From an uncultured Eubacteriales bacterium (GTDB lineage: Bacteria; Bacillota; Clostridia; Oscillospirales; Oscillospiraceae), in NCBI GenBank assembly GCA_900546075.1, contig URBH01000002.1:15263-79262 (forward strand): a stretch of 64,000 bases of DNA. The letters are read 5' to 3'. Below, in pieces: positions 3,786 through 30,535 of the stretch (positions are counted from its first letter, which is position 1; every line of letters begins with the position of its first letter). The position numbers and the translations under genes are program-made. The notes under the pieces were generated by a model. That model was given only the letters and a program-made list of their open reading frames with translations, made no database searches and was not told where the DNA came from.

Positions 3786-3926
3786 GTTTTGCCACCTCCT
3801 CCGCGTACTGCGTCACCGTGTCCGCCAGTTCGTTCAAGTCCGAAACGGACAGGGCCAGAAGATAATCCAGCCCTGTCCGCAGTTGTATGGACAACCCGAC
3901 GCAGGCCCTGTTTATGACGGCGGGCG

Positions 3927-7115: not shown

Positions 7116-7129
7116 TGGAGGAAATAGAA

Positions 7130-9631: not shown

Positions 9632-11872
9632 TTACACCTCGAAGGTCTGCTGCTTTTCCGCCGAGTCCTCTTCTTTCAGCAGCGCCCCGGCGGAGGGGAT
9701 GGTCTTGGTGCGGTAGCGGCTTTCGTTGACGATGCCGCTCTGACTCAGCAGCACCGCGTCCCGCAGCGTCGCCTTCTTTTTCAGCGTCATCACCGCCACG
9801 CCTTGGGTATTCCGCGTGGTCTTGGGCAGAAGCTGCGCCGTGGAGAAGATTGCCGCCCGGCCGTCGGTGGAGTACACCGCCATCTGCTCATCCGTATCCA
9901 GCGCCACCACTCTAATAAGCGGACTTCTGTCGCTGTAGGCGCCGGTGAGTTTTTTCCGGTTGGTTTTGGTCTCATAGGCGGACAGGGGAACCTTCGCCGC
10001 CTTGCCGTTTTCAAAGAAGAACAGAACAAAGCCCTTGTAGTCCCCGCAGAACACCAGCGCCACCAGATTCTCTCCCGCCTCGAAGCCCAGCTTCTGGGGC
10101 AGGTAATCGCCCAACTGGGACGCCTTGCCGTCGTCGAAGTCGGAAAGGCGGGATTTGTAGCACTGATACCGGTCGGTAAACACCAGAAATTCCGCCCTGT
10201 TGGTGGTCTCCTGGGAGAAGGACAGGCTGTCGCCCTCCTTGAATTTCTGCTCGCCGCTCATTCGCAGGGACTGGGCGGTCATCTTTTTCAGATACCCCTC
10301 CTTGGAGACGAACACCGTCACGCCGTAATCCGGCACGTCGTCCTCTTCCTCGGGGGCAGTCTCCTGGGCGTCATAGAGAATCTCCGTCCGCCGGGGCTGA
10401 CCGAACTTGTCGGCCACCGCCTGCAGTTCCTTGATGATGACGTTTTTCAGCTTCCGGGGGCTGTTCAGCGTGTCTCTCAGATCGGCGATCTCCCCTTCCA
10501 GGTCGTCGATGGCACGGGTCTGCTTGAGGATGTATTCCTTGTTGATGTTGCGCAGCTTGATCTCCGCCACGTAATTCGCCTGAATCTCGTCAATGCCGAA
10601 GCCGATCATCAGGTTGGGTACGACCTCGCTTTCCAGCTCCGTCTCCCGGATGATGGAAATGGCTTTGTCGATGTCCAGCAAAATCCGCTCCAGACCCTTT
10701 AACAGGTGCAGGCGGTCTTCCTTCTTCTGAACCTGGAAGAAAATCCGGCGCTTGACGCAGTCCGTGCGCCAGGCCGTCCACTCGTCCAGAATCTCCCCCA
10801 CGCCCATCACCCGGGGCATTCCCGCGATGAGGATGTTGAAATTGCAGGGGAAGCTGTCCTGCAAGGGCGTCAGACGGAACAGCTTCTGCATCAGCTTCTC
10901 CGGGTCAACGCCCCGCTTCAGGTCGATGGTCAGCTTCAGGCCGCCCAAATCCGTCTCGTCCCGCATGTCGGAAATCTCTTTGATTTTCCCCGCCTTGATC
11001 AGCTCCGCCACCTTGTCCATGATGACTTCCGTGGCGGTGGTGTAGGGGATCTCCGTGATTTCAATGAGATTGCCGTCCTTGACGTAGCGCCATTTTGCCC
11101 GGAGCCGGAAGCTTCCACGGCCTGTGGCATAGATTTCCCGTGTGGCGGCCTCGTCAAACAGCAGCTCGCCGCCGGTGGAAAAATCCGGGCCGGGCAGGGT
11201 CTCCAGAATGTCGTGGTCGGGATTTTTCATCAGGGCAATGGCGGTGTCGCACACCTCCCGCAGGTTAAACGAGCAGATGTTGGACGCCATGCCCACGGCG
11301 ATGCCCTGGTTGGCAGAAACCAGCACGTTGGGGAACGTGGTGGGCAGCAGCGCAGGCTCCTTCATGGTGGCGTCGTAGTTGTCCACCATGTCCACGGTGT
11401 CGCTGTCGATGTCCTTGAACACCTCGGCGCAGATGGAATCCAGCTTGGCCTCGGTGTAACGGGCGGCGGCGTAGGCCATGTCCCGGGAGTACACCTTGCC
11501 GAAGTTGCCCTTGGAATCCACAAAGGGATGCAGCAGCGTCTCGTTGCCCTTGGCAAGACGCACCATGGTCTCATAGATGGCGGCGTCGCCGTGGGGGTTC
11601 AGGCGCATGGTCTGGCCGACGATGTTGGCGGACTTCGTCCGTCCGCCGGTGAGCAGACCCATTTTGTACATGGTATACAGTAGCTTGCGGTGAGACGGCT
11701 TAAAGCCGTCGATCTCGGGAATTGCCCGGGAAACGATCACCGACATGGCATAGGGCATGTAGTTTAATTCCAGCGTCTCGGAAATGGCCTGCTCCGTGGT
11801 GGAGCCGTGCAGACCCATAATGCCGTCGGTGTTTATCTTCTTTTTTTCAGGTTCTTGCTTTTTCCGTGCCAT
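9632..11872 (-). CDS. gyrA: DNA gyrase subunit A
   Basis: 746 aa; contains the AIPEIDGFKPSHRKLLY active-site region. Confidence 0.95.
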   Translation of the reverse strand: MARKKQEPEKKKINTDGIMGLHGSTTEQAISETLELNYMPYAMSVIVSRAIPEIDGFKPSHRKLLYTMYKMGLLTGGRTKSANIVGQTMRLNPHGDAAIYETMVRLAKGNETLLHPFVDSKGNFGKVYSRDMAYAAARYTEAKLDSICAEVFKDIDSDTVDMVDNYDATMKEPALLPTTFPNVLVSANQGIAVGMASNICSFNLREVCDTAIALMKNPDHDILETLPGPDFSTGGELLFDEAATREIYATGRGSFRLRAKWRYVKDGNLIEITEIPYTTATEVIMDKVAELIKAGKIKEISDMRDETDLGGLKLTIDLKRGVDPEKLMQKLFRLTPLQDSFPCNFNILIAGMPRVMGVGEILDEWTAWRTDCVKRRIFFQVQKKEDRLHLLKGLERILLDIDKAISIIRETELESEVVPNLMIGFGIDEIQANYVAEIKLRNINKEYILKQTRAIDDLEGEIADLRDTLNSPRKLKNVIIKELQAVADKFGQPRRTEILYDAQETAPEEEDDVPDYGVTVFVSKEGYLKKMTAQSLRMSGEQKFKEGDSLSFSQETTNRAEFLVFTDRYQCYKSRLSDFDDGKASQLGDYLPQKLGFEAGENLVALVFCGDYKGFVLFFFENGKAAKVPLSAYETKTNRKKLTGAYSDRSPLIRVVALDTDEQMAVYSTDGRAAIFSTAQLLPKTTRNTQGVAVMTLKKKATLRDAVLLSQSGIVNESRYRTKTIPSAGALLKEEDSAEKQQTFEV

Positions 11873-14202: not shown

Positions 14203-14931
14203 TCAATCGTGGCGCTGCTCCCAGTTTTCGTAGGTTTCGCAGAACCGGCCGGAGAAGGACGGCTCCCGTCCCGCCGCGTACAGGTGGGAGGTGTCCCCGA
14301 AGGCACTCATGCGGAACGACGTGATGCCCTCCCGGCGCTCCTCCGTGTTCAGGATGGTGACGGAGGTGGGCAGAGAACAGACGCCATGCCACAGCACCAT
14401 GGGGGAAATTCCCAGCAAATGGCTCAGCAGGACGCAGGTAACGCCAAAGTGGCAGAACAGGACAATCGTATCCTCGTTGGACCGCTCCACCCGGTAGTAA
14501 TCCCCCTCCCGGCGGTAGCCGTGGCGGGCAAGCAGCTCGTCCAGCCCGTCCCAGACCCACTGGGCTTCTTCACGCACCCCGGCGGCGGTGAAACGGTCGT
14601 TTTCCCACCAGTGTTCCCGGTCGTAAAAGCGCTTGTCTGCCGTCCAGTCCTGGGGCAGCCAGTCCCAGGCAACGCCCGGCTTGTCCTTCCCCGGTCGGAG
14701 CACCTGGGGGGAGAATTCCCGCAGCCAGGGAAGAATTTCCGCCTGCCGCCCCAGCTTTTCCAGGGTAGCCTTGGCGGTGTCCTGTGCCCGTCCCTTTGGG
14801 GAGCAGTAAAACGCTTTCACGTCCAGCTTGCACAGGCGCTGAGACAGCAGCTCCGCCTCTATCCAGCCGGTTTCGGTCAGGGAATCGATGGAATAGTCCG
14901 GGTCGCCGTGGCGCACAATTAACAGCTTCAT
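14203..14931 (-). CDS. histidine phosphatase family protein (phosphoglycerate mutase-like)
   Basis: N-terminal LLIVRHGDP (RHG) motif. Confidence 0.8.
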   Translation of the reverse strand: MKLLIVRHGDPDYSIDSLTETGWIEAELLSQRLCKLDVKAFYCSPKGRAQDTAKATLEKLGRQAEILPWLREFSPQVLRPGKDKPGVAWDWLPQDWTADKRFYDREHWWENDRFTAAGVREEAQWVWDGLDELLARHGYRREGDYYRVERSNEDTIVLFCHFGVTCVLLSHLLGISPMVLWHGVCSLPTSVTILNTEERREGITSFRMSAFGDTSHLYAAGREPSFSGRFCETYENWEQRHD

Positions 14932-16850: not shown

Positions 16851-18089
16851 TCAGCGGATATGTCCGTTTCCGTGAATGATGTATTTATAGGTGGTCAGCT
16901 CCTGCAAGCCCATGGGGCCCCGGGCGTGGAGCTTCTGGGTGGAAATGCCCATCTCGCACCCTAAGCCGAATTCGCCGCCGTCGGTGAACCGGGTGGAGGC
17001 ATTGACATACACCGCCGCGCTGTCCACATTGGCGGTAAAATACCGCTCCGCCTCCGGACTGCGGGTCACAATGGCCTCGCTGTGGCCGGTGGAGTGCGCC
17101 GCGATATGGGCAACCGCCTCCTTCACATCCTCCACGCATTTGACGGCAAGGATATAGTCCAGAAATTCCGTATCAAAATCCTTCTCCCCGGCCTTTTTTC
17201 CGGGAATGATGGCAGCCGCCGTCTCGTCCAGGCGAAGCTCCACCGCCTTTTCCCGGTCAGTGACCAGACGTTTATAAAGCATGGGCAGGAACTTGGGGGC
17301 AATGGCCTTGTCCACCAGCAGAACCTCCTCGGCGTTGCAGACGCTGGGGCGGCTGGTTTTGGCGTTTTCCACGATGTTCAGCGCCATGTTCAGGTCGGCG
17401 GACTTCTCCACATATACGTGGCAGATGCCGATGCCGGTGGCGATGCAGGGCACGGTGGCAGTGCTTACACAGGCGTTAATCAGCCCCGCACCGCCCCGGG
17501 GAATCAGCAGGTCAATATAGCCGTTTGCGGTCATCAGCGCAGCGGCGCTTTCCCGGGATGTGTCCTGCACCAGATTCACCGCATTCTCCGTAACCCCCAC
17601 CGATTTAAGACCGGAGCGGAGGGCGTCCACAATGGCGTTGGCACTGCGGAACGCCTCTTTCCCGCTTCTGAGGACGCAGACGTTCCCGCTTTTCAGTGCC
17701 AGAGCGGCGGCGTCGCTGGTGACGTTGGGGCGGCTTTCGTAGATAATGGCAATGACGCCCATGGGGACGGATACCTTCTGAATTTCCAGACCGTCCGGCC
17801 GGGTGTGGGTCTGCAAAATCCGCCCCACCGGGTCAGGCAGCGCCGTCACCTCCCGGATGCCCTGCGCCATCCCGGCAATGCGCTCCTTTGTCAGCTTCAG
17901 TCTGTCCAGCATGACCGGGGAGATATGCGCCTTCGCGGATTCCATGTCCAATGCGTTCGCGCCGAGAATTGCGTCCTGCCAGGCAATCAATGCGTCCGCC
18001 ATGGCGTTCAGCGCGGCGTTCTTCTGCTCCGTGGTCAGGCCAGCGACTTCCCCTTTTGCCGCCTTGGCGGCTTCCAGCATTTCTTTCAC
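16851..18089 (-). CDS. proA: gamma-glutamyl phosphate reductase
   Basis: 412 aa aldehyde-dehydrogenase-like protein between proB and proC. Confidence 0.9.
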
Positions 18090-18856
18090 AAGCGTTCCTC
18101 CGAAAACGTGGTGCCAACGGCCTTTCCTTCCAGAATGTCATAGAGATTTCCCGGATTATTTCCGTTGGCAATGACCATTTTGCAGCCGCAGCCCAGGCAG
18201 ATTTCGGCGGCATGGAGCTTCGTGACCATTCCCCCGGTTCCCTGGGCAGAACTGCTGATCCCGGCAATTTCCCGGATATGGTCGTCAATTCCGGCGACGT
18301 GGTGCAATAGCTTCGCCTCCGGGTGGGTGTGTGGGTCGGCGGTGTACAGGCCGTCGATATCGGAAAGGAGAATCAGCATTTCGGCGTGGACGCTCCTTGC
18401 CACGATGGCGGCGAGGGTATCGTTGTCGCCGATGACGATCTCATCGGTGGCGACGGTGTCGTTCTCATTGATGATAGGCAGCGCCCCCAGCTCCAGAAGC
18501 CTGTTCAGGGTGTTGGTGAAGTTGAAGCGCCGGGTATTGCTGGCAGTATCGTCGCCGGTGATCAGCAGCTGCGCCACCGTGTGGTGGTACTCGCTGAACA
18601 GCTTGTCATATACATACATCAGCTCGCACTGCCCAACAGCGGCGGCGGCCTGTTTGGACGGGATGTCCTTTGGCTTTTCCCGCAGTCCCAGCTTCCCCAC
18701 CCCCATGCCGATGGCGCCGGAGGAAACCAGGATCAGCTCATGTCCGGCATTTTTGATATCGCTCATGATCTCGCAAAGCTGCTCCACCCGGCGGATATTT
18801 AAGTGGCCGGTGGGATGCGCCAGAGTCGATGTGCCGATTTTGATTACAATGCGCAT
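18086..18856 (-). CDS. proB: glutamate 5-kinase (short form, no PUA domain)
   Basis: [12 protein letters not shown]...; amino-acid kinase fold; TTTACT-17-TATAAT promoter upstream. Confidence 0.9.
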
Positions 18857-18985
18857 TTGCGTTCTCCCCTAAAACAATTTCGTTCATTATATCACTTTAG
18901 CATAATGAAGTAAATAGTCTGAAAGCAAGTTTCCGGTAAATGTTTTTACATATAAAATACTGACGGGCAGCATTTAGGGGAGCGT

Positions 18986-19163
18986 AAAACAGCGAATGGA
19001 GCGTATCGGTACAGATACGCTCCATTTCCCGTGACACCATACGCAGCCCCTTGGCTCTCCCTCTGGGAGAGCTGTCACCGAAGGTGACTGAGAGGGTACT
19101 GCACCCCGGTTTTCCCTCTCCGTCCTCGCTGCGCTCGGCCACCTCTCCCAAAGGGAGAGGCAA
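18986..19163 (-). repeat. ~180 bp multi-hairpin intergenic repeat, copy A (reverse complement of copy B)
   Basis: Near-identical by eye to 30235..30420 after reverse-complementing; four stem-loops reusing CTCTCCC/GGGAGAG arms. Confidence 0.7.
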
Positions 19164-19207
19164 GAGATGATCGCATTGAGCCCCGTCTATTCTGCCGCCC
19201 GTCAGGG

Positions 19208-20362
19208 TTATTTCTTTTCCAGCAGCTCCAGCGCCGCCTGAATCTGAGGATCCTCCTCCGGTTCCAGTTGGTCGTAGTAGATGGCGGCGGCGGTTTCCCC
19301 GTCCACCGGCACAACCACGTCCGGCGTGATTCCCACTCCCGCCAGGCTGACGCCCTTGGGGGTAAAATACTTCCCCACGGAGAGACCCACCGCGGAGCCG
19401 TCACTCAGGCGCATGGTATTCTGAAAATACCCTTTGCCGCAGGTTTTCTCTCCCACCACGTCGGCAACGCCGTACTCGCTTAAGGCCGCCGCGAAGAACT
19501 CCGCTGCGGAGTAGGAGTCCCCGTTCACCAGCACCGCCATGGGAATGTCCAGGCAATCCGCGTCGGAATAGTCCACCTTCTCCTTCCCGGCATAGTCCAC
19601 CGTGCGGAACAGCTCTCCCTCGGGCAGCAGATAGTCCAGCACCTTTACCAGCTCCTTGGCATAGCCGCCGGGGTTGTTGCGCACGTCGAAAATCAGCTTT
19701 TCCGCCCCCTGTGCAAGCAGCCCGTCAATGGCCGCGATGGCTTCCTCGGCGCACCGGGCGTCGAAATTCCCGATGGTCACAAGCCCGATATCGCCGCTCA
19801 GCATCCGTCCGCTGGCAACGACGGTCTGCACCTGCCGCCGCTCCACGGACAGCGTCACCCGCTCCCCGCGCCTGAGAACCGTCAGGGACACATAGGTGCC
19901 TTCCTCTCCCCGCACCAGATTCCGAACCTCCGCGGCGGTCATTTCCCGGACGTCCTGGCCTTCCACTTCGACCAGCAGATCGTCCACCTGAACGCCCGCG
20001 ACCTCGGCAGAGCTGCCCTCGTTCACGGCCTTAACCAGGAAGCCCTCCTGCTCCTTGGCCTCGATGGTGATGCCGACGCCCACGTAGGCGTTGTTCACCT
20101 GCTCCTCATGGGCGGCATATTCGCTGGCAGGGATATAGTAGCTCCACCGGTCATTCAGGGATTTGACCATGGCGGCCGCCGCAGCGTCCTCCATGGACAT
20201 CTGATCTGCGTCCCCGATAAAGCGTTCCAGAATCAGGCTTTCCAGCTGCTCCAGCTTAGAGCCGTAGGCATACCCCGGATAGCCCACCGCCGCCAGGGTC
20301 GCCACCGTGGCCAGCACTGCGACCAAAAGATAGCTTAAAGAGATCAGGATTTTCTTTTTCAC
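19208..20362 (-). CDS. ctpA: carboxy-terminal processing protease (S41) with PDZ domain
   Basis: Signal peptide, PDZ region and S41 catalytic region. Confidence 0.85.
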   Translation of the reverse strand: MKKKILISLSYLLVAVLATVATLAAVGYPGYAYGSKLEQLESLILERFIGDADQMSMEDAAAAAMVKSLNDRWSYYIPASEYAAHEEQVNNAYVGVGITIEAKEQEGFLVKAVNEGSSAEVAGVQVDDLLVEVEGQDVREMTAAEVRNLVRGEEGTYVSLTVLRRGERVTLSVERRQVQTVVASGRMLSGDIGLVTIGNFDARCAEEAIAAIDGLLAQGAEKLIFDVRNNPGGYAKELVKVLDYLLPEGELFRTVDYAGKEKVDYSDADCLDIPMAVLVNGDSYSAAEFFAAALSEYGVADVVGEKTCGKGYFQNTMRLSDGSAVGLSVGKYFTPKGVSLAGVGITPDVVVPVDGETAAAIYYDQLEPEEDPQIQAALELLEKK

Positions 20363-20427
20363 GGAATAACCACCTCATAGAAAGGATTCCCACAGTCCAT
20401 AGTATGAACTGTGGGAATGGTATTGAA

Positions 20428-21726
20428 TCAGTACAGGGCGACGTAATTACACGGATTGACGTAGACGCCGTTGTAGGAGATGCCGAAGTGCAGATGGTCG
20501 CCGGTGGTAATGCCGGTGGCGCCGGTAGCGCCGATCAGCTGTCCCGCGCTGACGATCTGTCCGGCGGATACGCAGGAGCTGCTTAAGTGCATGTAGATGG
20601 ACGAGAAGCCGTCCTGATGGTTGATCTGCACGTAGTTGCCGGCGGCATTGCCCCAGCCCGCTACGGTGACGACGCCCGCACGGCTCGCGTACACAGGATC
20701 GCCGGTGCCGGTATCCAGGTCAACGCCCTGATGGTATGTAGACGCACCCGAGGTGGGGGAAACACGGTTGCCGAAGGGACTGGTGATGGAGGTGTAGCTG
20801 CAGGGAACCAGCCAGCCGCCACTTCCACCGCTGCCGCCGCCGCTGCTCCCGGACGTTCCGCCGGAGCTGCTTCCGCCGGTGCCGCCGGCCTGGGTCGTGG
20901 GAGGTACGGAGGTTGCCTTCCAGGCTTCCCATTCCCGCTGCTTCGCCGCGTTGAACTGTACTTCCATGGCGGCGATCTGCTTCAGGAACGCATTTTCCTG
21001 CTCCTTGCATTCCTCTTCCAGCGCCTGGAGATCGTCGGCCTTTTGCAGCAGCTCCTGGAGCAGCGCCTCCGATTCCTTGCTTTTCTCGTTCATTTCCGCC
21101 TGGGTGTCGTCCAGGTCTTTCTTGGTGGTTTCCAGCTCGCCCTTTTCCGTTTCCAGCTCGGCCTGGGCTTCCTCCACCTTGTTGGCGGCGTCGCTCAGCT
21201 CCTGCAAACGGCGCTTGTCGGAGGCCGCGATCTCCTCCACCATGTTCAGCCTGTCCAGAAGGTCGGAGAAGCTGTTGGCCTTGAAGAGAACTTCCCAGTA
21301 GGAAACCTCCCCCTCCTCCTCCATGGTGCGGATGCGCTCCTTGTTTTCCTGATTCAGGGCTTCCAGACGATCCTCCGCCGTGTCCAGCTCGTCCTGCTTG
21401 TCGGCAATGAGCAGATTGTAGGCGGAGATCTGTTCGTTGATGTTGATGATCTGGGTATTCAGAAGCTGAATTTCCTGATCGACCACGTTCTTCTGGGCAA
21501 TCAGATCCGCAATTTCGTTCTCGTTCTCCTTGTACTGCTTCTTCACATCCGCAATCTGATTCTGTACCTCCTTGCGCTCCTGCTGCAAGGCAATGATCTG
21601 CTTGCGGATCTCGCCGGAGGATGCCGCACCGGCGAAGGTGGGCAGAATGCTCATCAGAAGCGTCAGCAGCAGTACCGCCGCCATGACGCCGGCGAGGACG
21701 GATACCAAACGTTTGCGATTTTTCAT
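20428..21726 (-). CDS. M23 family peptidase with N-terminal coiled coil (EnvC-like)
   Basis: Signal peptide, long coiled coil, C-terminal M23 motifs (HQGVDL...GDHLHFGI). Confidence 0.8.
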   Translation of the reverse strand: MKNRKRLVSVLAGVMAAVLLLTLLMSILPTFAGAASSGEIRKQIIALQQERKEVQNQIADVKKQYKENENEIADLIAQKNVVDQEIQLLNTQIININEQISAYNLLIADKQDELDTAEDRLEALNQENKERIRTMEEEGEVSYWEVLFKANSFSDLLDRLNMVEEIAASDKRRLQELSDAANKVEEAQAELETEKGELETTKKDLDDTQAEMNEKSKESEALLQELLQKADDLQALEEECKEQENAFLKQIAAMEVQFNAAKQREWEAWKATSVPPTTQAGGTGGSSSGGTSGSSGGGSGGSGGWLVPCSYTSITSPFGNRVSPTSGASTYHQGVDLDTGTGDPVYASRAGVVTVAGWGNAAGNYVQINHQDGFSSIYMHLSSSCVSAGQIVSAGQLIGATGATGITTGDHLHFGISYNGVYVNPCNYVALY

Positions 21727-21787
21727 AGGAATCTCCTTTTCACGATGGGGACGGGCATTGTCATCAGCAGACGCAATGCCAATGGAT

Positions 21788-23011
21788 TTACAAGATATAT
21801 GCCAATGGGTTTACATAAGTTCCTGCGTAAGAAATACCGAAGTGAAGGTGCGGGCCGGTGGAAAGGCCGGTGCTGCCCACATAGCCAATGAGCTGCCCCT
21901 GGGACACGCTCTGTCCCGCGGAGACAACGTAGTTGGTCATGTGCATATAGATGGAGGCGAAGCCGTCCAAATGGTTGATGCTGACATAGTAGCCTGCGCC
22001 GCCGGCCTGATAGGAGGCCACCGTGACGGTGCCGGCTCTCGTAGCGTAGATGGGTGTTCCCTGATTGCAGGCCATATCAATGCCGTTGTGCATTCTCTGG
22101 GTGCCCAAAATCGGGTGGGTACGCATTCCGAAGGGACTGGTGATGGTATAGCCGGACACCGGGGTCGTCCAGGAGGCGTTGGAGGGCGGGTTTTCCCCCT
22201 GCATGGCCAGCTTGGCCAGATACTCGTCGTACTTTGCCTGCTTGAGGTCTTTTTCCTTGGCGGCAATTTCCTGCATCAGGTCGTCCTGAAGGGCTTCCGA
22301 CTCGTCCATCATCCGCTGGTATTCCTCGGACTTCTTTTCCAGCTCCCGGAGCATGTCGTCGGATTCCGTGCGTTTTTCCTCCAGCTCGGCCTCCGCCGCC
22401 GTCAGCTCCTCCCAAGTGCCCTCCAGCTCGGTTTTTTCCGATTCCAGGCTCATGCGGGTGGCGGCAACAATGTCCGACGCAATGCGCATTTCCTGAAGAC
22501 GGCGCTGGTCGGCCTGGGAAATCTCCTGCATCATGTTCAGCCGATCAAGGAGGTCAGTAAAGCTGTTGGCCTCGAAAATGACCTGCCAGTAAGTAATGCT
22601 GCCGCCTTCCTCCATCGCCCGGATACGCTCCCGGTGCTGCTCGCTCAGGGTGCGCAGCTCCTCCTCGGCGGCGTCCAGCGTGTCCTGGGTGTCCGCAATG
22701 AGCTGGCTGTAGGCGGAAATCTGGGCGTTGGTGGTCTCAATCTTGCCTGTCAGAAGGGCGATTTCCTCGTCGATGGCTTCCTTCCTGCTCACGATATCGG
22801 CCATGTCGCTATAATTGGCGTCGTACTGGCTTCGCACAGCGTCGATCTGCGCCTGGATGGCCTTGTTCTTTTCCTCCAGTGCGTCAATCTCCTTCTGGAT
22901 TTCACCGGAGGTGGCGGCATCCGCCGGAACCGGCGCGATGCTCACCGCCATCACCGCCGCCAGACATAGGGCGACCAGCGATCTCACGGTTATCTCTCTG
23001 TGTTTGCTCAT
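21788..23011 (-). CDS. M23 family peptidase with N-terminal coiled coil (EnvC-like), paralog
   Basis: Same architecture; HNGIDMA...GPHLHFGI. Confidence 0.8.
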   Translation of the reverse strand: MSKHREITVRSLVALCLAAVMAVSIAPVPADAATSGEIQKEIDALEEKNKAIQAQIDAVRSQYDANYSDMADIVSRKEAIDEEIALLTGKIETTNAQISAYSQLIADTQDTLDAAEEELRTLSEQHRERIRAMEEGGSITYWQVIFEANSFTDLLDRLNMMQEISQADQRRLQEMRIASDIVAATRMSLESEKTELEGTWEELTAAEAELEEKRTESDDMLRELEKKSEEYQRMMDESEALQDDLMQEIAAKEKDLKQAKYDEYLAKLAMQGENPPSNASWTTPVSGYTITSPFGMRTHPILGTQRMHNGIDMACNQGTPIYATRAGTVTVASYQAGGAGYYVSINHLDGFASIYMHMTNYVVSAGQSVSQGQLIGYVGSTGLSTGPHLHFGISYAGTYVNPLAYIL

Positions 23012-23013
23012 AG

Positions 23014-23901
23014 TTATACGTCCATAAACTTTCGGATAGAAGTCCAGCTGCCCACGATACCGACGAACATACCGGCGGCGGCGAAGGTAGCAACCATGGG
23101 GAGCAGCAGCTCCTGGAAGGGTACGAAGTTGAACAGCTGCAAGGCGTCCACGCTGCCGATCTTATTCAGCATCGCGTCGTAGCCCAGCCATTCCAGGCCG
23201 AAGGCCAGGATGGCGCCGATCATGCCCAGGGAAAAGCCCTCCACCACGAAGGGCAGCCGGATAAAGCCGTTGGTGGCGCCCACCATTTTCATAATGGCGA
23301 TCTCGTCCCGCCGGTCGTACATGGCCAGCTTGACGGTGTTGGAAATAATCAGCAGGCTGACCACCAGCAGCACCGCGATCACCGCCACGGAGACGATGTG
23401 CAGCACGCTCTGAATGGTGGTGAAGCCCTCCGCCAGCTCGTAGGCCGCGTTGATCTTATCCACGCCGGGCAGCTGCAAAAGCAGCTCGGCGGTCTGCTGC
23501 ATTTTGGTGTTGTCCTCCAGGGTGACCACATAGCGGTGGCGCAGATCCTGTGGCTGAACGCCGCTGAAGGCGCTGTCGTTGTCGTGGTCGCTGACAAAGC
23601 TTTGAAGCGCTTCCTCACGGGAAACGAACTTTGCCTCCAGAACGTTGTCCAGGAGGTTAATTTTGGTGCCGATCGACCTTGCTTCGGCGTCGGACAGGCT
23701 GCTGTCGATGTACACAAGAATTTCGCTGGTCTTATTTAAGTCCTGCACCATGATGTCCAGGTTATAGGCCAGCGCGGAGAAGCTGCCCACGATGATCAGA
23801 CACGCCACCGTGACGCAGATAGCGGCAAAGGACATAAAGCCGTGCTGGAAAATGCTGCGGAAGCCCTCCTTGAGCAGATATCCGATATTATTGAGCTTCA
23901 T
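23014..23901 (-). CDS. ftsX: cell division permease FtsX
   Basis: 4-TM FtsX-like topology; 14-nt overlap with ftsE. Confidence 0.85.
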   Translation of the reverse strand: MKLNNIGYLLKEGFRSIFQHGFMSFAAICVTVACLIIVGSFSALAYNLDIMVQDLNKTSEILVYIDSSLSDAEARSIGTKINLLDNVLEAKFVSREEALQSFVSDHDNDSAFSGVQPQDLRHRYVVTLEDNTKMQQTAELLLQLPGVDKINAAYELAEGFTTIQSVLHIVSVAVIAVLLVVSLLIISNTVKLAMYDRRDEIAIMKMVGATNGFIRLPFVVEGFSLGMIGAILAFGLEWLGYDAMLNKIGSVDALQLFNFVPFQELLLPMVATFAAAGMFVGIVGSWTSIRKFMDV

Positions 23902-24577
23902 GTTTGCTTTCCTCCCCGATTCCGTCTCTCACCACGACGCCCTCATTGATGGCAATGGTGCGTTTATGGAACAGCTTTGCCAGATTCTGATCGTGGGTGA
24001 CCACCAGCATGGTGGTTCCCAGATTGTTGATCTCCTGCAGCAGCGCCATAATTTCAAAGGAGCGCTCCGGATCCAGGTTGCCGGTAGGCTCGTCGGCGAT
24101 GATGGTGGACGGATTGTTCACCAGGGCGCGGGCGATGGCAAGTCTCTGCTGCTCGCCGCCGGACATCTCGTTGGGGTGGCGGTTCATCTTGCCTTCCAGA
24201 CCCACCAGCTCCAGCACATAGGGAACCCGTTCCTTGATCTCGGATTCCTTCGCGCCCACGACCCGCATGGCGAAGGCCACGTTCTCATAGACCGTCATTT
24301 TCTCGATCAGGCGGTAGTCCTGGAACACGACGCCGACGGTGCGGCGCAGATAGGGAACCTCACGCTTGCGAACCCGCTCCAGGGAATAGCCGTTGACGTG
24401 GACGGTGCCGGAGGTGGGCTTCAGCTCGCCGGTGATCAGCTTGATGATGGTGGACTTACCGGAACCGGAAGGACCGATCAGGAAGCAGAACTCGCCGTCC
24501 TCGATCTGCATGGTAACGCCGTTAAGGGCTTTGTTACCCTGCGTATAGGATTTTACAACATCAGTAAATTCAATCAT
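23888..24577 (-). CDS. ftsE: cell division ATP-binding protein FtsE
   Basis: Walker [10 protein letters not shown] and ABC signature LSGGEQQR. Confidence 0.9.
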
Positions 24578-24871
24578 ATTCGCATCTTTCTCCCGTCATA
24601 GGCGGTATCGGAATTGCCGTCAACGCAACCCCATACCGCCCGCAGTGTAACCGAATTGTAACACATCACAAAATCAATGTCAATCACATTCCGAAATAAA
24701 TGGGGCAAAAGCGCAGATTTAACAGATTATCCACAATTATTCCCCCGATTTTTTCAGCTTTCTTTCATATTTCTCCTATATTACGCCCCAAAAACAGGAA
24801 ACTCCTTCCGCAAAACCGGGTCAGGCATACAGAAGCGGGGCTGCAAATGCAGCCCCGCAGGATATGCTTCT

Positions 24872-25960
24872 TCACCGGGTCTCCCGGGAAGTGAGGTACT
24901 TGCGCACCATCAGCGCCACCTTGAAGACAATGGCGTGGTCAAACTGCCGCAGATCCAGTCCCGTGAGCTTTTTGATCTTTTCCAGACGGTAGACCAGGGT
25001 GTTGCGGTGGACAAAGAGCTTCCGGGAGGTCTCGGAGACGTTCAGGTTGTTCTCAAAGAACTTGTTGATGGTGAACAGGGTCTCCTGGTCAAGAGAATCG
25101 ATGGAATTCTTCTTGAACACCTCGCTGAGGAAGATCTCGCACAATGTGGTTGGCAGCTGGTAGATCAGACGGCCGATGCCCAGGTTTTCGTAGTCGATGA
25201 TGCTCTTTTCGGTGTCGAACACCTTGCCCACGTCAATGGCGGTCTGGGCTTCCTTGTAGGAATCCGCCAGCTCCCGCAGATGGTCGGACACGGTGCCGAT
25301 GCCGATGACGGTCTTGATCCGCAGCTCGTTTTTCAGGGTGTCCTCCATAGACTTGGCGATCTTCTCCAAGTCCTCGGGGGTCGTCCCGCCGGTGATCTGC
25401 TTGATGACCGCCACGTCGCTTTCGTTGATGGACAGGACAAAGTCCTGCATCTTGTCCGGGAACATCCCCGCCAGCACGTCCACGGTGGCCACGTCGCTGT
25501 GACCCACCTGCCGGATGAGGAACACCGCCCGGGGGGCGTCGGTGGCAAAGTGCAGCTCCTTGGCGCGGATGTAAATATCACCGGGCAGGATATTGTCCAT
25601 GATGATATTCTTTACAAAAGTTCCCCGGTCATGCTTCTCCTCATAGAAGGTCTTGGCATCGTTCAGGGCGATATAGGCCATCTGGCAGAAGCTCCGTGCC
25701 ATCTCGTCGTCGCCGGAGCAGAAAACGGCGTATTCCAGCACGTTGGAATTGCCCAGAATGGCCTTGAAGCTGCGCTGGCCGAAGGTGACGATGCTGTCGG
25801 CGGCGTTCGCCACCTTCAGCGCGGCGTCCGTCCAGCGCTCACCCAGAATGGACATATCGGTGCAGGAAACCACACACCCCTCGGTATCGATTACGCCGAA
25901 GCTGCGGTCCGTAATATCCCGCAACTGAACAATGACACTCTGAAAAACGCTGTTGGACAT
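24872..25960 (-). CDS. PucR/CdaR-family transcriptional regulator
   Basis: C-terminal HTH (SETSRKLFVHRNTLVYRLEKI); start refined to MSNSVF (TAAGGAG, 11-nt spacing). Confidence 0.7.
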   Translation of the reverse strand: MSNSVFQSVIVQLRDITDRSFGVIDTEGCVVSCTDMSILGERWTDAALKVANAADSIVTFGQRSFKAILGNSNVLEYAVFCSGDDEMARSFCQMAYIALNDAKTFYEEKHDRGTFVKNIIMDNILPGDIYIRAKELHFATDAPRAVFLIRQVGHSDVATVDVLAGMFPDKMQDFVLSINESDVAVIKQITGGTTPEDLEKIAKSMEDTLKNELRIKTVIGIGTVSDHLRELADSYKEAQTAIDVGKVFDTEKSIIDYENLGIGRLIYQLPTTLCEIFLSEVFKKNSIDSLDQETLFTINKFFENNLNVSETSRKLFVHRNTLVYRLEKIKKLTGLDLRQFDHAIVFKVALMVRKYLTSRETR

Positions 25961-26156
25961 ATCTACAGTCACTCCTTAGTATCTTGCATAAATGCGCATT
26001 TCACAAAAACGCATTATTATTATACACAGCTTTTGCGCACATTGCAAGTGCCTTTTGACATTTTATTGCAAAATCTCTTATGTTTTTTAGATAATATACC
26101 AAGGTTTACCGGCAAGCGGTCCCTACGCAGTCTGTTTCTTCCAGCAAAATGACCGT

Positions 26157-26867
26157 TCATGGCTGGGGCTTCTCCTCCAATTGGGCAATCTCCTCTTCCG
26201 TCAGCTCCCGGCTCCGGCCTCTCGGCAGATCGCCAAGGGTCAGCGCTCCCTCCTGTCTGCGCTCCAGGTAGGTCACGGTCATATTCCGGGAGGCCATCAT
26301 CCGCCGCACCTGGTGGTATTTCCCCTCCCGGACAGTGATCCGGCTCTCCCCCGCTCCCAGCGGCTCTAAAAGCGCGGGCAGGCATACCGTGCCGTCCCGG
26401 AGGGTCAGCCCCGCGGCAAAGGCGGCTGCGTCGTCGGCATTTGCCTGTCCCTCGTGGCGGGCATAGTAAATTTTCGCCACTTCCTTTTTCGGCGAAATCA
26501 GCCGGTGGAGCAGCTCGCCGTCGTTGGTAAACAGCAGCAGCCCCTCGGTGGCCTTGTCCAGGCGGCCTACGGGCTTTAAGTCCATGTGCCGCCACGCCTC
26601 CGGCAGCAGCTCCATGACGGTTTTTTCGTTCGCGTCCTCCGTGGCCGTGACGTAGCCCGCCGGCTTGTTGAGCATCACCACCATCCGGCGCTTTCCGCTT
26701 AAGGCTTCTCCGTCCAGGGCAACCGTGTGGACGGCGGGGTCGATCTTCCGGGAGCCGTCCTTCTCAGGATTTCCGTCCACGGTCACCCGTCCGGCTTTCA
26801 GGATGGTCTTCACCTGAGAGCGGGTGCCTGTGCCGCTGTCGCACAGGAATTTGTCCAGTCGTTCCAT
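26157..26867 (-). CDS. pseudouridine synthase (RsuA/RluB family) with S4 domain
   Basis: Start refined to MERLDKFLCDSG (S4 domain); conserved catalytic-Asp GRLD motif present. Confidence 0.8.
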   Translation of the reverse strand: MERLDKFLCDSGTGTRSQVKTILKAGRVTVDGNPEKDGSRKIDPAVHTVALDGEALSGKRRMVVMLNKPAGYVTATEDANEKTVMELLPEAWRHMDLKPVGRLDKATEGLLLFTNDGELLHRLISPKKEVAKIYYARHEGQANADDAAAFAAGLTLRDGTVCLPALLEPLGAGESRITVREGKYHQVRRMMASRNMTVTYLERRQEGALTLGDLPRGRSRELTEEEIAQLEEKPQP

Positions 26868-26940
26868 AGCTCCTCCGTTCTGCTTCCCGCTTCCGGCGCA
26901 TAGGCTGTACCACCGAAATATGAACCGGGAGGGATTTATT

Positions 26941-27471
26941 ATGATGGTTATGACCGCGAAGGTCAATCTGAAAAAGGCAATGATCGCCCTTGCTGCCGTG
27001 GCGGCGCTGATCGTGGCGCTGATTCTGCTGCTGGGCGGGGGCGGGGACTCCGCCGAGACTTCCGCGCCCACGGCCTCCAGCAACGACGGCCGGGTGAAAT
27101 TTCTGACGGATCTCGGCTGGGACGTCACCACGTCCCCCACAGATTCCAGTCAGGTACGCATCCCCGCGGCGTCCAGCGACGTATTCGAGCGCTACAACGC
27201 CCTGCAAAAGAGCCAGGGCTACGACCTGGGGCAGTACGCCGGGAAGAAGGTCATGCGCTACGTCTACAAGATCAACAACTACCCCGGCGCCACCGAGCCG
27301 GTGTACGCGACGCTGCTGGTCTACAAGAATCAGATCATCGGCGGCGACATAACGGACACCGCCGCCCAGGGAAAGATCCGCGGCTTCAAAATGCCGGAGG
27401 CCACGACCGTCCCCACCATTCCCAGCCTCCCCACGGAAACCGCCGCCACCACGCCGGAAACCACGCAGTAA
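26941..27471 (+). CDS. DUF4830-like secreted/membrane-anchored protein
   Basis: GGGAGGG RBS; N-terminal TM helix; Thr/Pro-rich C-terminus. Confidence 0.55.
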   Translation: MMVMTAKVNLKKAMIALAAVAALIVALILLLGGGGDSAETSAPTASSNDGRVKFLTDLGWDVTTSPTDSSQVRIPAASSDVFERYNALQKSQGYDLGQYAGKKVMRYVYKINNYPGATEPVYATLLVYKNQIIGGDITDTAAQGKIRGFKMPEATTVPTIPSLPTETAATTPETTQ

Positions 27472-27564
27472 GCAAAGAGAAGCCGCCGTATTTTATCTAT
27501 GGTATCACACAATTCCGCTCTTGACAAGCGCCCCGCTCTGTGCTACTGTGTAACCGAACTGAAC

Positions 27565-27905
27565 AGTATCTTCAGGGCGGGGCGAAATTCCCCACCGGCG
27601 GTAAAGGAAGCTCTGATTCAATCGGCGAGAGCTGACAGCGAGAGATTTTTCTCTGGACGAAAGCTTCAAAAGTGGAGAAATACTGTATGTATTTCCCGCT
27701 TTTGAAGCTGCACGGATAGAGGAAAAGATTCGCTGCTCAGCCGAAGACGATTGATTCAGAGGTTCCCAAGTCCGCGAGCGCGTCAGCGTTGAATCGGTGA
27801 AACTCCGATACCGACAGTACAGTCTGGATGGAAGAAGATACGCAAAGGATATTTGCGTTTTTTTCACGCCCTGAGTGTAAACTCAGGGCGCATTTTTGTT
27901 TTGAG
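27565..27905 (+). ncRNA. FMN riboswitch (RFN element) with an enlarged variable stem, plus terminator expression platform (27848..27900)
   Basis: CAGGGCGGGGCGAAATTCCCCACCGGCGGTAAAG ... GGTGAAACTCCGATACCGACAGTACAGTCTGGATGGAAGAAG; terminator CGCCCTGAGTgtaaaCTCAGGGCG+T-run; ribU directly downstream. Confidence 0.8.
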
Positions 27906-27914
27906 GTGATACCA

Positions 27915-28634
27915 ATGACCGATCTGTGGAAACAAATTTTAGACAATCTGTCCTTTGTAGGCGTGAGCCTCGCCATCGTGGTGGGGCTTGCCCTGCTGGC
28001 ACGGCTGGAGGAGCGTTTTCTCCCGGAAAAGCGGAAGGTCAGTCCCGCCCGGCGGGTCAGCATCATCGGCATCAGCGCCGCCATCGCCGCCGTGCTCCAT
28101 GTGCTGGACTTTCCTCTGGTGGTTCTCGCGCCGGAATTCTACAAGCTGGACTTTTCCGAGCTGCCCGTGCTGCTGTGCGGATTTTACCTGGGGCCCAGCG
28201 CCACCGTAATTTGCGAGGGCGTGAAAATTCTGCTGAAGCTGCTTCTGAAAGGCACTTCCACCGCCTTTGTGGGCGATCTTGCCAACTTCGTGGTGGGATG
28301 CTCCCTGGTTCTCCCCGCCACCGTTTTCTACCACGCCCACAAGAGCAAGCACAGCGCCATCATCGGCCTTGCCATCGGCACGCTGGTCATGACCGTGTTC
28401 GGCAGCGCCTTCAACGCCGTCTACCTTCTGCCCAAGTTTGCCCAGCTGTACGGCATTCCCCTGGACACCATCATCGCCATGGGAACGGCCATCCGGGGCG
28501 GGGTCAGCAATATCTCCACCTTTGTTCTGCTGTGTGTTGCGCCCCTGAACCTGCTGAAAGGCACCGTCGTCTCCGTGCTGACGATGCTGCTGTATAAACG
28601 GGTGGCAAGGCCTCTGTTCGGGCTGCATCAATAA
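27915..28634 (+). CDS. ribU: ECF transporter S component for riboflavin
   Basis: GAGGTGA RBS; polytopic membrane protein directly downstream of the FMN riboswitch. Confidence 0.75.
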   Translation: MTDLWKQILDNLSFVGVSLAIVVGLALLARLEERFLPEKRKVSPARRVSIIGISAAIAAVLHVLDFPLVVLAPEFYKLDFSELPVLLCGFYLGPSATVICEGVKILLKLLLKGTSTAFVGDLANFVVGCSLVLPATVFYHAHKSKHSAIIGLAIGTLVMTVFGSAFNAVYLLPKFAQLYGIPLDTIIAMGTAIRGGVSNISTFVLLCVAPLNLLKGTVVSVLTMLLYKRVARPLFGLHQ

Positions 28635-28726
28635 CTACCAAAACTGCCGGGGTATCTCTCCGGCAGTTTTCCTTTGCCTTTCTCGGGAAATTGTGGTATA
28701 GTATTCAGAAAAAGGAGGTATTTTCT

Positions 28727-29233
28727 ATGTGTGAACTTCTGAAACCCCGCCGCAGCGTCCGCAAGTACCGCCCCGAGCAGGTGCCGGACGCGCTGCTGGA
28801 CGCCGTGCTGGAGGCCGGGCTTTACGCCCCCTCCGCCATGAATAACCAGAAGCCCGTCATGGTGGCCGTCCGGGACAAGGCTATCCGGGATCAGCTTTCC
28901 CGGATGAACGCCGCCGTGATGGGTACCGACCGTGACCCCTTCTACGGCGCACCCTGCGTCATCGTCGTGCTGGCCGACCCCGGCTATCCCACCTGGGTGG
29001 AGGACGGCTCTCTGGTGCTGGGCAATCTGCTCAACGCCGCCCACGCCGCGAAACTTGGCAGCTGCTGGATCAACCGCGCCCGGGAGATGTTCGACACCCA
29101 GGAGGGCAAGGCGCTTCTCGGTAAGTGGGGCGTTCCGGAACACTACCGGGGCATCGGCTGCTGCATTCTGGGCTACGCCGACGAGAACCCCGCCCCCAAG
29201 GAGCGGGCGGCGAACCGCATCCTGAAAATCTGA
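28727..29233 (+). CDS. nitroreductase family protein
   Basis: AAGGAGG RBS; RRSVRKY N-terminal nitroreductase motif. Confidence 0.8.
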   Translation: MCELLKPRRSVRKYRPEQVPDALLDAVLEAGLYAPSAMNNQKPVMVAVRDKAIRDQLSRMNAAVMGTDRDPFYGAPCVIVVLADPGYPTWVEDGSLVLGNLLNAAHAAKLGSCWINRAREMFDTQEGKALLGKWGVPEHYRGIGCCILGYADENPAPKERAANRILKI

Positions 29234-29248
29234 CAAAAAAGGAGAAGA

Positions 29249-29779
29249 ATGATGGACTTTCTGGAAATTGCCCGCGCCCGGCAATCCTGCCGCAGCTATG
29301 ACGAGACCCGGCCTGTAGAACAGGAAAAGCTGGACGCCGTGCTGGAAGCCGCCCGTTTGGCTCCCTCCGCCTGCAACGCCCAGCCCTACCATTTCACCGT
29401 CTGCCGGGGGCAGGCCGCCAAGGCCGTGGTCGCCGGTGTGACCGGCATGGGCATGAACAAATTTACCGCTCAGGCGCCGGTGCTCATCGTAATCTCCGAG
29501 CGTTCCTACAATAAAACCGCCGCTCTTGGCTCCAGAGTCACGAAGGTAGACTACCGCTCCATCGACATCGGCATTGCCGCTGCCTATCTCACCGCCGAGG
29601 CCACCGCTCAGGGGCTTTCCACCTGTATCATCGGCTGGCTGGACGACGCCAAGCTCCGGGCAGCCTGCGGCCTGAATCAGCCGGTGCGGCTGGTGATCGC
29701 TCTGGGCTACGCGAAGGAGGGCGATCCCCTCCGGGAGAAAAAGCGCCGGGACATGGGAGAGCTGGTGGATTACCGATGA
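29249..29779 (+). CDS. nitroreductase family protein (paralog)
   Basis: RQSCRSYDE motif; tandem with the previous gene. Confidence 0.8.
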   Translation: MMDFLEIARARQSCRSYDETRPVEQEKLDAVLEAARLAPSACNAQPYHFTVCRGQAAKAVVAGVTGMGMNKFTAQAPVLIVISERSYNKTAALGSRVTKVDYRSIDIGIAAAYLTAEATAQGLSTCIIGWLDDAKLRAACGLNQPVRLVIALGYAKEGDPLREKKRRDMGELVDYR

Positions 29780-30204: not shown

Positions 30205-30234
30205 CTACATGGGCGGCCATAATGAGCTGCACCC

Positions 30235-30420
30235 CTTGCCTCTCCCTATGGGAGAGGTGGCTGAGCGAAGCGAAGACGGAGAGGGTACACATGGGCGCAA
30301 CACCCTCTCAGCCACCTTCGGTGACAGCTCTCCCAAGGGGAGAGCCAAGGGGCTGTACTAATCGCATGTTTGCACGGGAAATGGAGCGTATCCGCACCGA
30401 TACGCTCCACTCACTGTTTT
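30235..30420 (+). repeat. ~180 bp multi-hairpin intergenic repeat, copy B
   Basis: See copy A; its 3' end is the hairpin GGAGCGTATCCGCACCGATACGCTCC followed by CTGTTTT. Confidence 0.7.
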
Positions 30421-30456
30421 ATGACCACCCGTTAAATTGCCGCTCCTTTTTTCCTC

Positions 30457-30513
30457 TTGACAAAGAGCCGTTTCCGTTGTACAATACATTTAACAATTCA
30501 GCTAATTGTTAAA
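30457..30513 (+). promoter_or_regulatory. TTGACA-17-TACAAT promoter plus perfect palindrome TTTAACAATTcagctAATTGTTAAA (30489..30513), likely ArsR/SdpR-type operator
   Basis: Read directly from the sequence. Confidence 0.55.
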
Positions 30514-30535
30514 TGTTTGATCGGAGGTGAATCCC

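Follow-up and report, generated by a model that had tools for sequence, protein, structure and literature searches.

The window analysed here, a 64-kb stretch of DNA from an Oscillospiraceae organism near Faecousia (its CtpA shares 80% identity with the CtpA of a metagenome-assembled Faecousia genome), carries two inverted copies, A and B, of a modular repeat built of several hairpins. Copy A follows ctpA (S41 peptidase, 19208-20362, minus strand) and precedes proB (18086-18856, minus strand); copy B is located between a gene encoding a PCC-domain protein (29776-30204, plus strand) and arsR (30527-30808, plus strand). A preliminary description of this DNA had placed both repeats in this context, in sense orientation and ahead of the promoter of the next gene, and it was right on all these points: the flanking genes are co-directional, and promoter-like sites are present 3' of the copies, at 18914-18886 for proB and at 30457-30485 for arsR. 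The existence of the two copies was also corroborated. A repeat search over the window recovered the inverted pair 19044-19169/30230-30355 (126 nt, 87% complementary) and the adjoining pair 18985-19043/30363-30421 (59 nt, 86% complementary), and both BLAST (84.5% identity over 187 nt) and MAFFT (mean column identity of 85%) agreed on about 85% identity. The copies do lie at 18986..19163 and 30235..30420, as had been proposed, but the homology reaches further; considering homology and inserted DNA together, copy A extends over 18972-19191 (220 nt) and copy B over 30219-30437 (219 nt). A hidden Markov model of the family detected copies A and B and no third copy in the window.

Along the sense strand, each copy presents the same order: a module Y, a 17-nt spacer, a module X, a linker, a hairpin Z and a tail. 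Module Y contains a hairpin GCCTCTCCC-loop-GGGAGAGG, next a short hairpin in which G.A pairs stand in tandem, and finally the tail GACGGAGAGGG. Module X starts with the tail CCCTCTC, continues with AGTCACC-TTCG-GGTGAC and with AGCTCTCCC-loop-GGGAGAGCC, and is, apart from a few fixed differences, the reverse complement of Y. The Z hairpin (13 bp, ATGGAGCGTATC...GATACGCTCCAT) is followed by the tail TCRCTGTTTTAYG.C.CCC..TAAAT. The consensus fold shows six local hairpins instead of the four stem-loops described previously; the arms CTCTCCC/GGGAGAG are used by two of them and not by three, since the supposed third pairs GAGAGGG with CCCTCTC in the opposite polarity, and the last hairpin has 13 pairs rather than 9. 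The mutually exclusive pairings that had been noticed among these arms are real; they arise because X and Y are a single unit present twice in opposite orientations, with a Shine-Dalgarno sequence as the tail of Y and the complement of this sequence as the tail of X. The motif CTCTCCC-N3-5-GGGAGAG was found four times in the window, all four within the copies, when shuffled sequences give an expectation of 0, and both strands of both copies fold with z-scores of -6.5 to -7.7 against shuffles. The tRNA-Ser-like look of GGGAGAGGTGGCCGAGCG was dropped, as there was neither a tRNA nor an Rfam call. Mechanically called open reading frames (ORFs) run through the copies (…PLPLGEVAERSEDGEG…SVTFGDSSPRGRAKGL…), one of 88 codons at 18897-19163 on the minus strand and one of 61 codons at 30176-30361 on the plus strand, and such frames are a likely source of spurious "hypothetical proteins" in the annotations of these genomes.

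Comparison with related loci located the limits of the inserted DNA. The ctpA-proB spacer measures 140 and 166 nt in syntenic relatives and 351 nt in the window, and the alignment places the additional ~220 nt precisely between one arm of an ordinary terminator and the other. The empty site reads ATGCGGGCGGCC-GAAAA-GGCCGCCTGCAT-TTTTG in the comparison locus L140, with closed terminators in L140-L143, and the filled site of the window reads CTGACGGGCGG...insert...CTGCCCGTCAG-TATTTTAT. For copy B, the empty site is found in L150, where GGGGCGGCC-GTAAC-GGCCGCCC-TTTTT stands right after the stop codon of the PCC-domain gene in a 117-nt spacer. The flanks of L150 are 92% identical to the window; L148, which is equally far from the window and ~95% identical to L150, carries the copy B element (94.6% identical to that of the window). 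Therefore, the element is polymorphic for presence and absence among close relatives at this locus, and the empty terminator is intact. When both complete spacers were folded, the minimum free energy structures paired the host arms around the insert (z = -8.2 and -5.9). The features of an intrinsic terminator, namely a GC-rich hairpin and a U-run at the end of a gene, are displayed by these interrupted host arms and their T-runs and not by the whole element. Each copy is extra DNA lodged at the apex of an intrinsic terminator, within the loop of the one that serves the gene upstream (ctpA for copy A, the PCC-domain gene for copy B). In addition, short-read contigs from the window's own species break off ~70 nt inside copy A, as is typical of repeats.

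Other insertions were observed in these spacers. Locus L149, whose PCC protein is 87% identical, presents different palindromic repeat families at the equivalent positions (1500-1940 and 3700-3990), with a GCAAAATGCTGAATGC-rich block of 436 nt after ctpA and another insertion between the arsR operator and the start codon. Intergenic palindromic insertions seem to be common in this clade.

The element is widely dispersed. Fragments of it matched 21 records of human-faecal "bacteriophage" and one plasmid of Haliovirga (Fusobacteriota). Patterns for the X module gave at least 120 matches in IMG/VR viral contigs and at least 120 in GTDB contigs (one genome per species), and a pattern for the Z hairpin gave at least 120 in metagenomes; the scans of the collections were pattern-ascertained and the counts are lower bounds. 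Among the matches listed, those of X in genomes were mostly from Oscillospiraceae, Faecalibacterium, Faecousia, Ruminococcaceae, Monoglobus and Acutalibacter, with few from Negativicutes and Lachnospiraceae, and those of Z were all from the human gut. An X module is also present on a complete F. prausnitzii chromosome. Copies thus exist far beyond the two of the window, contrary to the case that the preliminary description had considered fatal to its proposal, and its general view, that of an intergenic repeat present in multiple copies and built of modules with several hairpins, broadly REP/BOX-like, was borne out.

After orientation and dereplication, the Z matches displayed at least 54-56 distinct 3' flanks, most of them with Y-X upstream of Z. 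The tail ATTSACTGTTTTAYGAMCACCCATCWAA was conserved in all Z loci and had a T-run within a few bases in 37 of 54. In full-length members the left end is an imperfect inverted repeat of ~23 bp of this tail (AATGCGGGTGGTCGTAAGACAGT vs TAGATGGGTGTTCATAAAACAGT); the window copies keep the right terminal repeat only. The automatic search for split arms (duplexfold, perfect complements) was noisy, with many elements exceeding the 300-nt span, and both ends were then set explicitly. All of the 11 elements with both ends fixed (405-1204 nt) had complementary GC-rich arms on their two sides, preceded by an A-tract and followed by a T-run, indicating that they lie in terminator loops. The junctions show A-rich loop residues, and in L200 and L238, though not in L187, both sides carry the same 13 nt of loop plus 3' arm. 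Doublets Y..X and X..Y on one strand both occur. A terminal-repeat scan of viral contigs for a larger autonomous element yielded four matches and was uninformative.

The origin of the modules is apparent from locus L162, in which Y and X are separated by a 114-codon ORF, compared with 17 nt in the window copies. Its product belongs to DUF559, a Vsr-like PD-(D/E)XK family (PF04480, E = 2.9e-27; "DUF559 domain-containing protein" in NCBIfam), and a search of this ORF against Pfam gave no match to Y1_Tnp. At least 11 intact cassettes with constant junctions were identified, with ORFs of 114-126 aa in elements of 0.47-1.2 kb. On the left, Y, or else an X-type unit oriented like Y, terminates in GGAGAGGG/GAGAGGG, 6 nt before the ATG, so that Y supplies the Shine-Dalgarno sequence. 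On the right, the canonical ORF ends in ...RKRLQGPLSHLR-stop, the first half of X encoding the last seven codons and the TGA. In L424 a bare 0.47-kb cassette, without Z or outer repeats, was found between convergent genes. Longer elements with the same ends (714-1204 nt) encode DUF559 only, with or without a GNAT gene; no known transposase domain, be it that of the REP-associated tyrosine transposase (RAYT) or another, was found within elements bounded by the terminal repeats, where DUF559 and GNAT were the only genes.

When aligned with an intact cassette, the window copies correspond to the same element minus the ~370-nt ORF, and the spacer corresponds to the leader (nAAAC) plus the last codons before X. 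No DUF559 was detected by phmmer in the window and, given the absence of such an ORF in the 17 nt between Y and X, the copies are derivatives and not intact cassettes. Intermediate deletion forms were found in L180, L188 and L252, and other members keep longer C-terminal or N-terminal remnants of the ORF, so decay has occurred repeatedly. The intact gene stood beside X in 2 of 120 genome loci and in 1 of 120 viral loci among the matches listed, which means that ORF-less modules greatly outnumber the gene. The DUF559 subfamily itself comprises 7,356 clusters (90% identity, E <= 1e-20), some with thousands of members, and most members are on contigs shorter than 2 kb.

We propose, with a probability of roughly three in four, that the two copies are non-autonomous fossils, of ~220 bp each, left by a small mobile DNA element frequent in Oscillospiraceae and Faecalibacterium of the human gut. 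The sequence comparisons show insertion in pre-existing terminators, dispersal to many loci, derivation from a DUF559 cassette, and loss of the ORF and of the left end in the window copies. The element would have spread as DNA, mobilised in trans by a protein encoded by the family, for which the DUF559 nuclease is the sole candidate seen, and the window copies would now be immobile. They would be co-transcribed as 3' extensions of the ctpA and PCC-gene mRNAs. By folding on itself, the insert would draw the host arms together and termination could persist, which would explain why the copies are tolerated. The pairing of GAGAGGG with CCCTCTC could sequester the ribosome-binding site in intact cassettes, and in the window copies it would merely form a hairpin. 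Any effect on expression would be a by-product and not the reason for the existence of the element. On this reading, the window copies themselves are ordinary, decayed selfish DNA.

It should be noted that several observations weigh against this proposal. We infer mobility only from presence/absence and dispersal, and DUF559 is not known as a transposase. Target-site duplications of a consistent length were not found at the element junctions. Most of the comparison loci are metagenome contigs, some of them with chimeric flanks, and the gene calls behind the orientation statistics given below are crude and heuristic. Copy B is better conserved between the window and L148 (94.6%) than the flanking genes (90-93%), a difference that may stem from constraint or just from homogenisation. 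The two copies of the window are both sense to local transcription. Furthermore, both lack the left terminal repeat and lie in terminators that share GGGCGGCC arms; two copies truncated in this way fit transposition dependent on terminal repeats poorly, and they may reflect ectopic gene conversion or a one-ended copying mechanism.

Mixed flanks were seen in the comparisons of L243 with L162/L255 and of L167 with L245, where the 5' flank of one insertion locus is joined to the 3' flank of another. These contigs represent either recombination between 1.2-kb copies of the element or chimeras of metagenome assembly.

The composition of the stems bears on whether the structure is selected as RNA. 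Among X-type modules we counted 157 distinct inner stems, of which 112 kept the pairing, versus 6 after shuffling, and the pairs were 585 Watson-Crick, 4 G.T and 9 A.C; the second hairpin gave 199 T-A, 175 C-G, 2 T.G and 1 C.A, and RNAalifold reported three compensatory pairs in the Y-X-Z composite. The Z family was sense to the neighbouring genes in 12 cases, antisense in 9, between convergent genes in 12 and between divergent genes in 5. Symmetric palindromes restricted to Watson-Crick pairs, without orientation bias, favour an element acting at the DNA level over a selected RNA. The alternative is a functional cis-acting RNA, that is, a small RNA (sRNA), an insulating or extended terminator, or a 3' structure that stabilises the mRNA, the first two of which had been put forward in the preliminary description. 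Such a function would agree with the very stable predicted folds (z about -7 for the copies, besides the values of the whole spacers), with the sense orientation of both copies, with the slightly better conservation of copy B and with the terminator-like score of Z plus CGCTGTTTTA in copy A. However, the Z hairpin of copy B does not score as a terminator, the antisense strand folds equally well, the covarying stems are nearly devoid of G-U pairs, and close relatives without the element keep ordinary terminators. In viral contigs X modules are mostly sense to the neighbouring genes (50 vs 12 antisense), which would also suit an RNA; this bias can be reconciled with a role of X as the 3' end of a gene cassette. 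Moreover, the leader, the Shine-Dalgarno sequence and the C-terminal codons of a lost gene account for the sequence of the copies, and Rfam 15 gave no match, at gathering or at permissive thresholds, for the copies or for 15 related loci (the best score of the copies was Whalefall-1, 18.1 bits against a gathering value of 37, E = 0.035). A regulatory RNA is thus not supported for these copies, and we consider it unlikely.

The same Watson-Crick palindromes, located between transcription units, could instead be a REP/BIME-like DNA site domesticated by the host and kept because a nucleoid protein, gyrase or similar host protein, or a cruciform, aids chromosome organisation or operon decoupling there. 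The element is fixed in the strains of the species that were sampled, with copy B present in 10/10 contigs and copy A in 2/2 full contigs. Among relatives of similar divergence, though, presence varies, the family inserts at unrelated loci, the copies hold decaying coding remnants and a truncated end, and neither a binding motif nor a partner protein was identified. We consider domestication an improbable explanation.

Inverted repeats of ~190 nt separated by 11 kb also bring to mind a substrate for recombination, through which the intervening segment (19.2-30.2 kb) would be inverted as a switch of genome structure. Chimeric flanks among family members would be in line with it, and so would a survey of programmed inversions in which DUF559 genes were enriched among the predicted targets (PMC9881135). 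Nevertheless, at least 12 contigs spanning either copy were all in the orientation of the window, an identity of ~85% is unfavourable to homologous recombination, there is no invertase gene next to the copies, and the inversion would part ctpA from proB and the PCC gene from arsR without evident gain. We regard such a switch as very improbable. As a separate matter, relatives at 73-75% identity (L144, L149) have ctpA directly followed, on the same strand, by a pair of nitroreductase genes and the PCC gene, and in window positions 19208-30204 the ctpA and nitroreductase/PCC blocks are oppositely oriented and ~8 kb apart. The region has been rearranged, in a way that does not match a simple inversion between copies A and B. 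The coordinates of the parts of both copies, together with those of X modules found inside reading frames elsewhere, are collected in Table 1.

Table 1. Parts of copies A and B in the window, and X modules lying in frame within large open frames of gut viral contigs (positions of the latter refer to the contig named).
Location	Feature	Position	Strand	Remarks
Copy A	Host ctpA intrinsic terminator, 5' arm CTGACGGGCGGCAG	19192..19205	-	Pairs with 18960-18971 in the whole-spacer fold; same arms with a 5-nt loop and no insert in L140-L143
Copy A	Left end of the insert, degenerate; left terminal repeat not recognisable	19167..19191	-	Without the AGACAGTTAA core of full-length members
Copy A	Module Y: hairpin CCTCTCCC/GGGAGAGG, tandem-G.A hairpin, tail GACGGAGAGGG	19114..19161	-	Left bracket of the former DUF559 cassette; carries its Shine-Dalgarno sequence
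Copy A	17-nt spacer, remnant after deletion of the ~370-nt DUF559 ORF: leader AAAAC and last codons GGGGTGCAGTA	19097..19113	-	Alignment with the intact L167 cassette
Copy A	Module X: CCCTCTC tail, UUCG hairpin GTCACC/GGTGAC, hairpin CTCTCCC/GGGAGAG	19053..19096	-	Still reads P-L-S-H-L-R-stop, the DUF559 C-terminus
Copy A	Linker from module X to Z hairpin	19026..19052	-	
Copy A	Z hairpin, 13-bp subterminal, ATGGAGCGTATC...GATACGCTCCAT	18996..19025	-	
Copy A	Right terminal repeat (tail) TCGCTGTTTTACGCTCCCCTAAAT	18972..18995	-	Conserved tail ATTSACTGTTTTAYGAMCACCCATCWAA across 54 loci
Copy A	Host ctpA terminator, 3' arm GCTGCCCGTCAG and T-run TATTTTAT	18952..18971	-	
Copy B	Host terminator of the PCC-domain gene, 5' arm GGGCGGCC	30211..30218	+	Arms pair in the spacer fold; intact terminator at the same site in L150
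Copy B	Truncated left end of the insert	30219..30231	+	
Copy B	Module Y	30238..30285	+	Compensatory change in the inner hairpin, from C-G in copy A to U-A here (columns 35/47: UA n=9, CG n=7)
Copy B	17-nt remnant of the ORF deletion	30286..30302	+	
Copy B	Module X	30303..30346	+	
Copy B	Linker and Z hairpin (Z, 30381-30410)	30347..30410	+	
Copy B	Right terminal repeat (tail) TCACTGTTTTATGACCACCCGTTAAAT	30411..30437	+	
Copy B	Host terminator, 3' arm TGCCGCTCC and T-run TTTTTT	30438..30452	+	
L023	In-frame X module	7121-7173		
L038	In-frame X module	10323-10367		
L089	In-frame X module	10620-10664		
L133	In-frame X module	1991-2035		
L082, L098	In-frame X modules, two in each			
L122	In-frame X modules, three			

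The modules were also observed in other arrangements. In gut viral contigs, X modules occur in the sense orientation inside open frames of 1,500-3,200 codons, which they leave uninterrupted; they are read in at least two different frames and are often followed by a conserved extension ACTGGCGTG.CGGGCAG.... In further viral loci (e.g., L022, L028, L049, L054 and L039) the 5' end of X very often directly abuts the stop codon of the upstream gene (TAG, TGA or TAA, and then CCCTCTC), which fits X carrying or replacing the 3' ends of genes. Contig L061 contains head-to-tail arrays of 3-5 X modules at 1695-2006 and at 6452-6630 (minus strand), with a period of 66-67 nt and a constant 20-nt linker AAGGACGCTGCGGCGGGTTA; neighbouring units show compensatory changes (GTCCCGC/GCGGGAC vs GTCTCGC/GCGAGAC). 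A CRISPR-like reading of these arrays was rejected, as the "spacers" are constant. In L160 (~2150-2290, minus strand), a nested palindromic insertion (…CCAATTAAAATC…GATTTTAATCAGG…) lies within the X of an otherwise full-length element. Finally, plasmid pHIC of Haliovirga abyssi, a marine member of the Fusobacteriota, presents a compact X-AAAAA-Y doublet between thiG and thiH (L019, 1502-1593). This doublet is 91.5% identical to the X of the window over 46 nt, and a tblastn search of DUF559 against the plasmid collection gave no match on the plasmid that bears it.

Beyond the gut family, DUF559 genes with inverted repeats around them were found in other bacteria and viruses. In 7 of 21 diverse DUF559 loci from viral contigs and plasmids, the flanking inverted repeats exceeded the 99th percentile of 2,150 control ORFs. 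In Deinococcus, a 56-nt repeat, 98% complementary, surrounds a DUF559 gene inserted between paaD and paaZ; three viral DUF559 loci have repeats of 22-29 nt, whose hairpin sequences differ from the gut type in the same layout; in Sinorhizobium a perfect 39-nt X..Y-like doublet lies beside a DUF559 gene; and the stop codon of a ycjD-like gene of E. coli is inside CCCTCTCCCTGA. The enrichment of DUF559 genes in the survey of programmed inversions cited above is consistent with flanking inverted repeats. This small sample suggests that a REP/RAYT-like partnership, so far undescribed, may be general. As a tentative extension, which we hold to be somewhat less probable than its opposite, the DUF559 proteins would be the mobility or maintenance enzymes of widespread, undescribed selfish elements made of hairpin modules, an analogue of RAYT/REP with another nuclease fold. 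The 45-nt modules would then serve both as the terminal repeats of the cassettes and as the starting points of doublets of REPIN type, of arrays and of in-frame insertions, and some lineages would home into terminator loops.

For the window, the result is modest: neither an sRNA nor a small ORF should be annotated at its copies. Of more consequence is the family at large, which disrupts short-read assembly of abundant Clostridia of the gut and yields thousands of spurious "hypothetical proteins" and extended gene calls. In addition, the loops of intrinsic terminators emerge as a tolerated, and possibly targeted, landing site, and DUF559, an uncharacterised and very abundant family, gains a testable role. 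If it is true that DUF559 propagates the modules, this would be a second and independent solution to the REP/RAYT lifestyle.

Other features of the window deserve mention. A full-length DUF3268 RNA (RF02966) at 61390-61512 on the plus strand, with 98.1 bits against a gathering threshold of 65.3, is the only Rfam match of the window and is unrelated to the copies. Head-to-tail repeats of 294 nt, in three to four copies with 61-77% identity, occupy 53812-54812 and probably encode repeated domains of a surface protein; SpaA/Gram-positive anchor genes are present in related contigs. Between the arsR promoter and start codon, a near-perfect palindrome, CATTTAACAATTCAG(C/T)TAATTGTTAAATG, was found at 30480-30512 and at the same position in L144, L148, L149 and L150. 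It is almost invariant among relatives that are 73-96% identical and is, for this reason, a likely ArsR/SdpR operator. Lastly, a 37-nt inverted repeat, 86% complementary, is present at 1707-1743 and 14580-14616, 12.8 kb apart.

[quoted passage not shown] Bacterial MITEs include Correia of Neisseria, RUP, BOX and SPRITE of Streptococcus pneumoniae, and ERIC, and a 2024 review of those of prokaryotes mentions neither endonucleases nor Clostridia (PMC10969869). Like them, the gut element is small, non-autonomous, multi-copy, hairpin-forming, mostly intergenic and probably co-transcribed with its neighbours, and it suffers nested insertions. Imperfect terminal inverted repeats of ~23 bp are present in its full-length members, and the window copies keep the right one only. 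With 220 and 219 nt and at least 54 flanks, the non-coding copies are within the size (below ~600 bp) and the dispersal to unrelated loci that are usual for MITEs. However, neither an autonomous parent with the same ends and a transposase nor another classical transposase partner was found, the left ends are heterogeneous and absent in the window copies, and the target is the loop of an intrinsic terminator. The resemblance to BOX of S. pneumoniae (boxA-boxB(n)-boxC) is limited to modularity.

Rickettsia palindromic elements insert in frame within genes (PMC10969869), as the X modules appear to do in the very large ORFs of gut phage contigs, in at least two reading frames and leaving them unbroken; the window copies, in contrast, are intergenic, and there is no sequence relation. 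A survey of PD-(D/E)XK proteins places VSR, DUF559 and DUF2726 in one group that includes a homing endonuclease of group I introns (PMC3424549). This shared fold group gives DUF559 a precedent for selfish mobility, although the gut gene is free-standing between inverted hairpin modules, with no intron or intein context. The insertion sequences IS1397 and ISKpn1 insert into REP loops and IS110-family elements into REPs, by means of DDE or DEDD transposases. ISPpu9, of the IS110 family, is reported to target REPs (PMC12288879). The gut element similarly sits in the apex or body of a pre-existing hairpin whose arms are left flanking the insert, but it targets Rho-independent terminators and its only gene is DUF559.

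The REP/REPIN-RAYT systems of Proteobacteria consist of short palindromic units found as singletons, inverted doublets or arrays, and of their associated RAYT. The gut gene is not a member of that group, since it encodes a DUF559 PD-(D/E)XK protein and not an IS200/IS605-like HUH Y1 transposase. Its units also differ from REPs: they are ~45 nt long, with two hairpins and without a GTAG head, they provide the gene with its ribosome-binding site and last codons, and in this gut subfamily they sit in terminator loops. Nevertheless, both systems combine units that stand alone, in inverted doublets or in arrays with a small nuclease-type gene that has such a unit on either side in opposite orientations; doublets devoid of the ORF are far more numerous than the gene, and the palindromes of the gut element appear, like REPs, to act at the DNA level. 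Inverted doublets together with a unit flanking the gene in inverted orientation, an arrangement of REP/REPIN-RAYT systems, were observed here as well, and REP/REPIN-RAYT is the closest functional counterpart of the element family.

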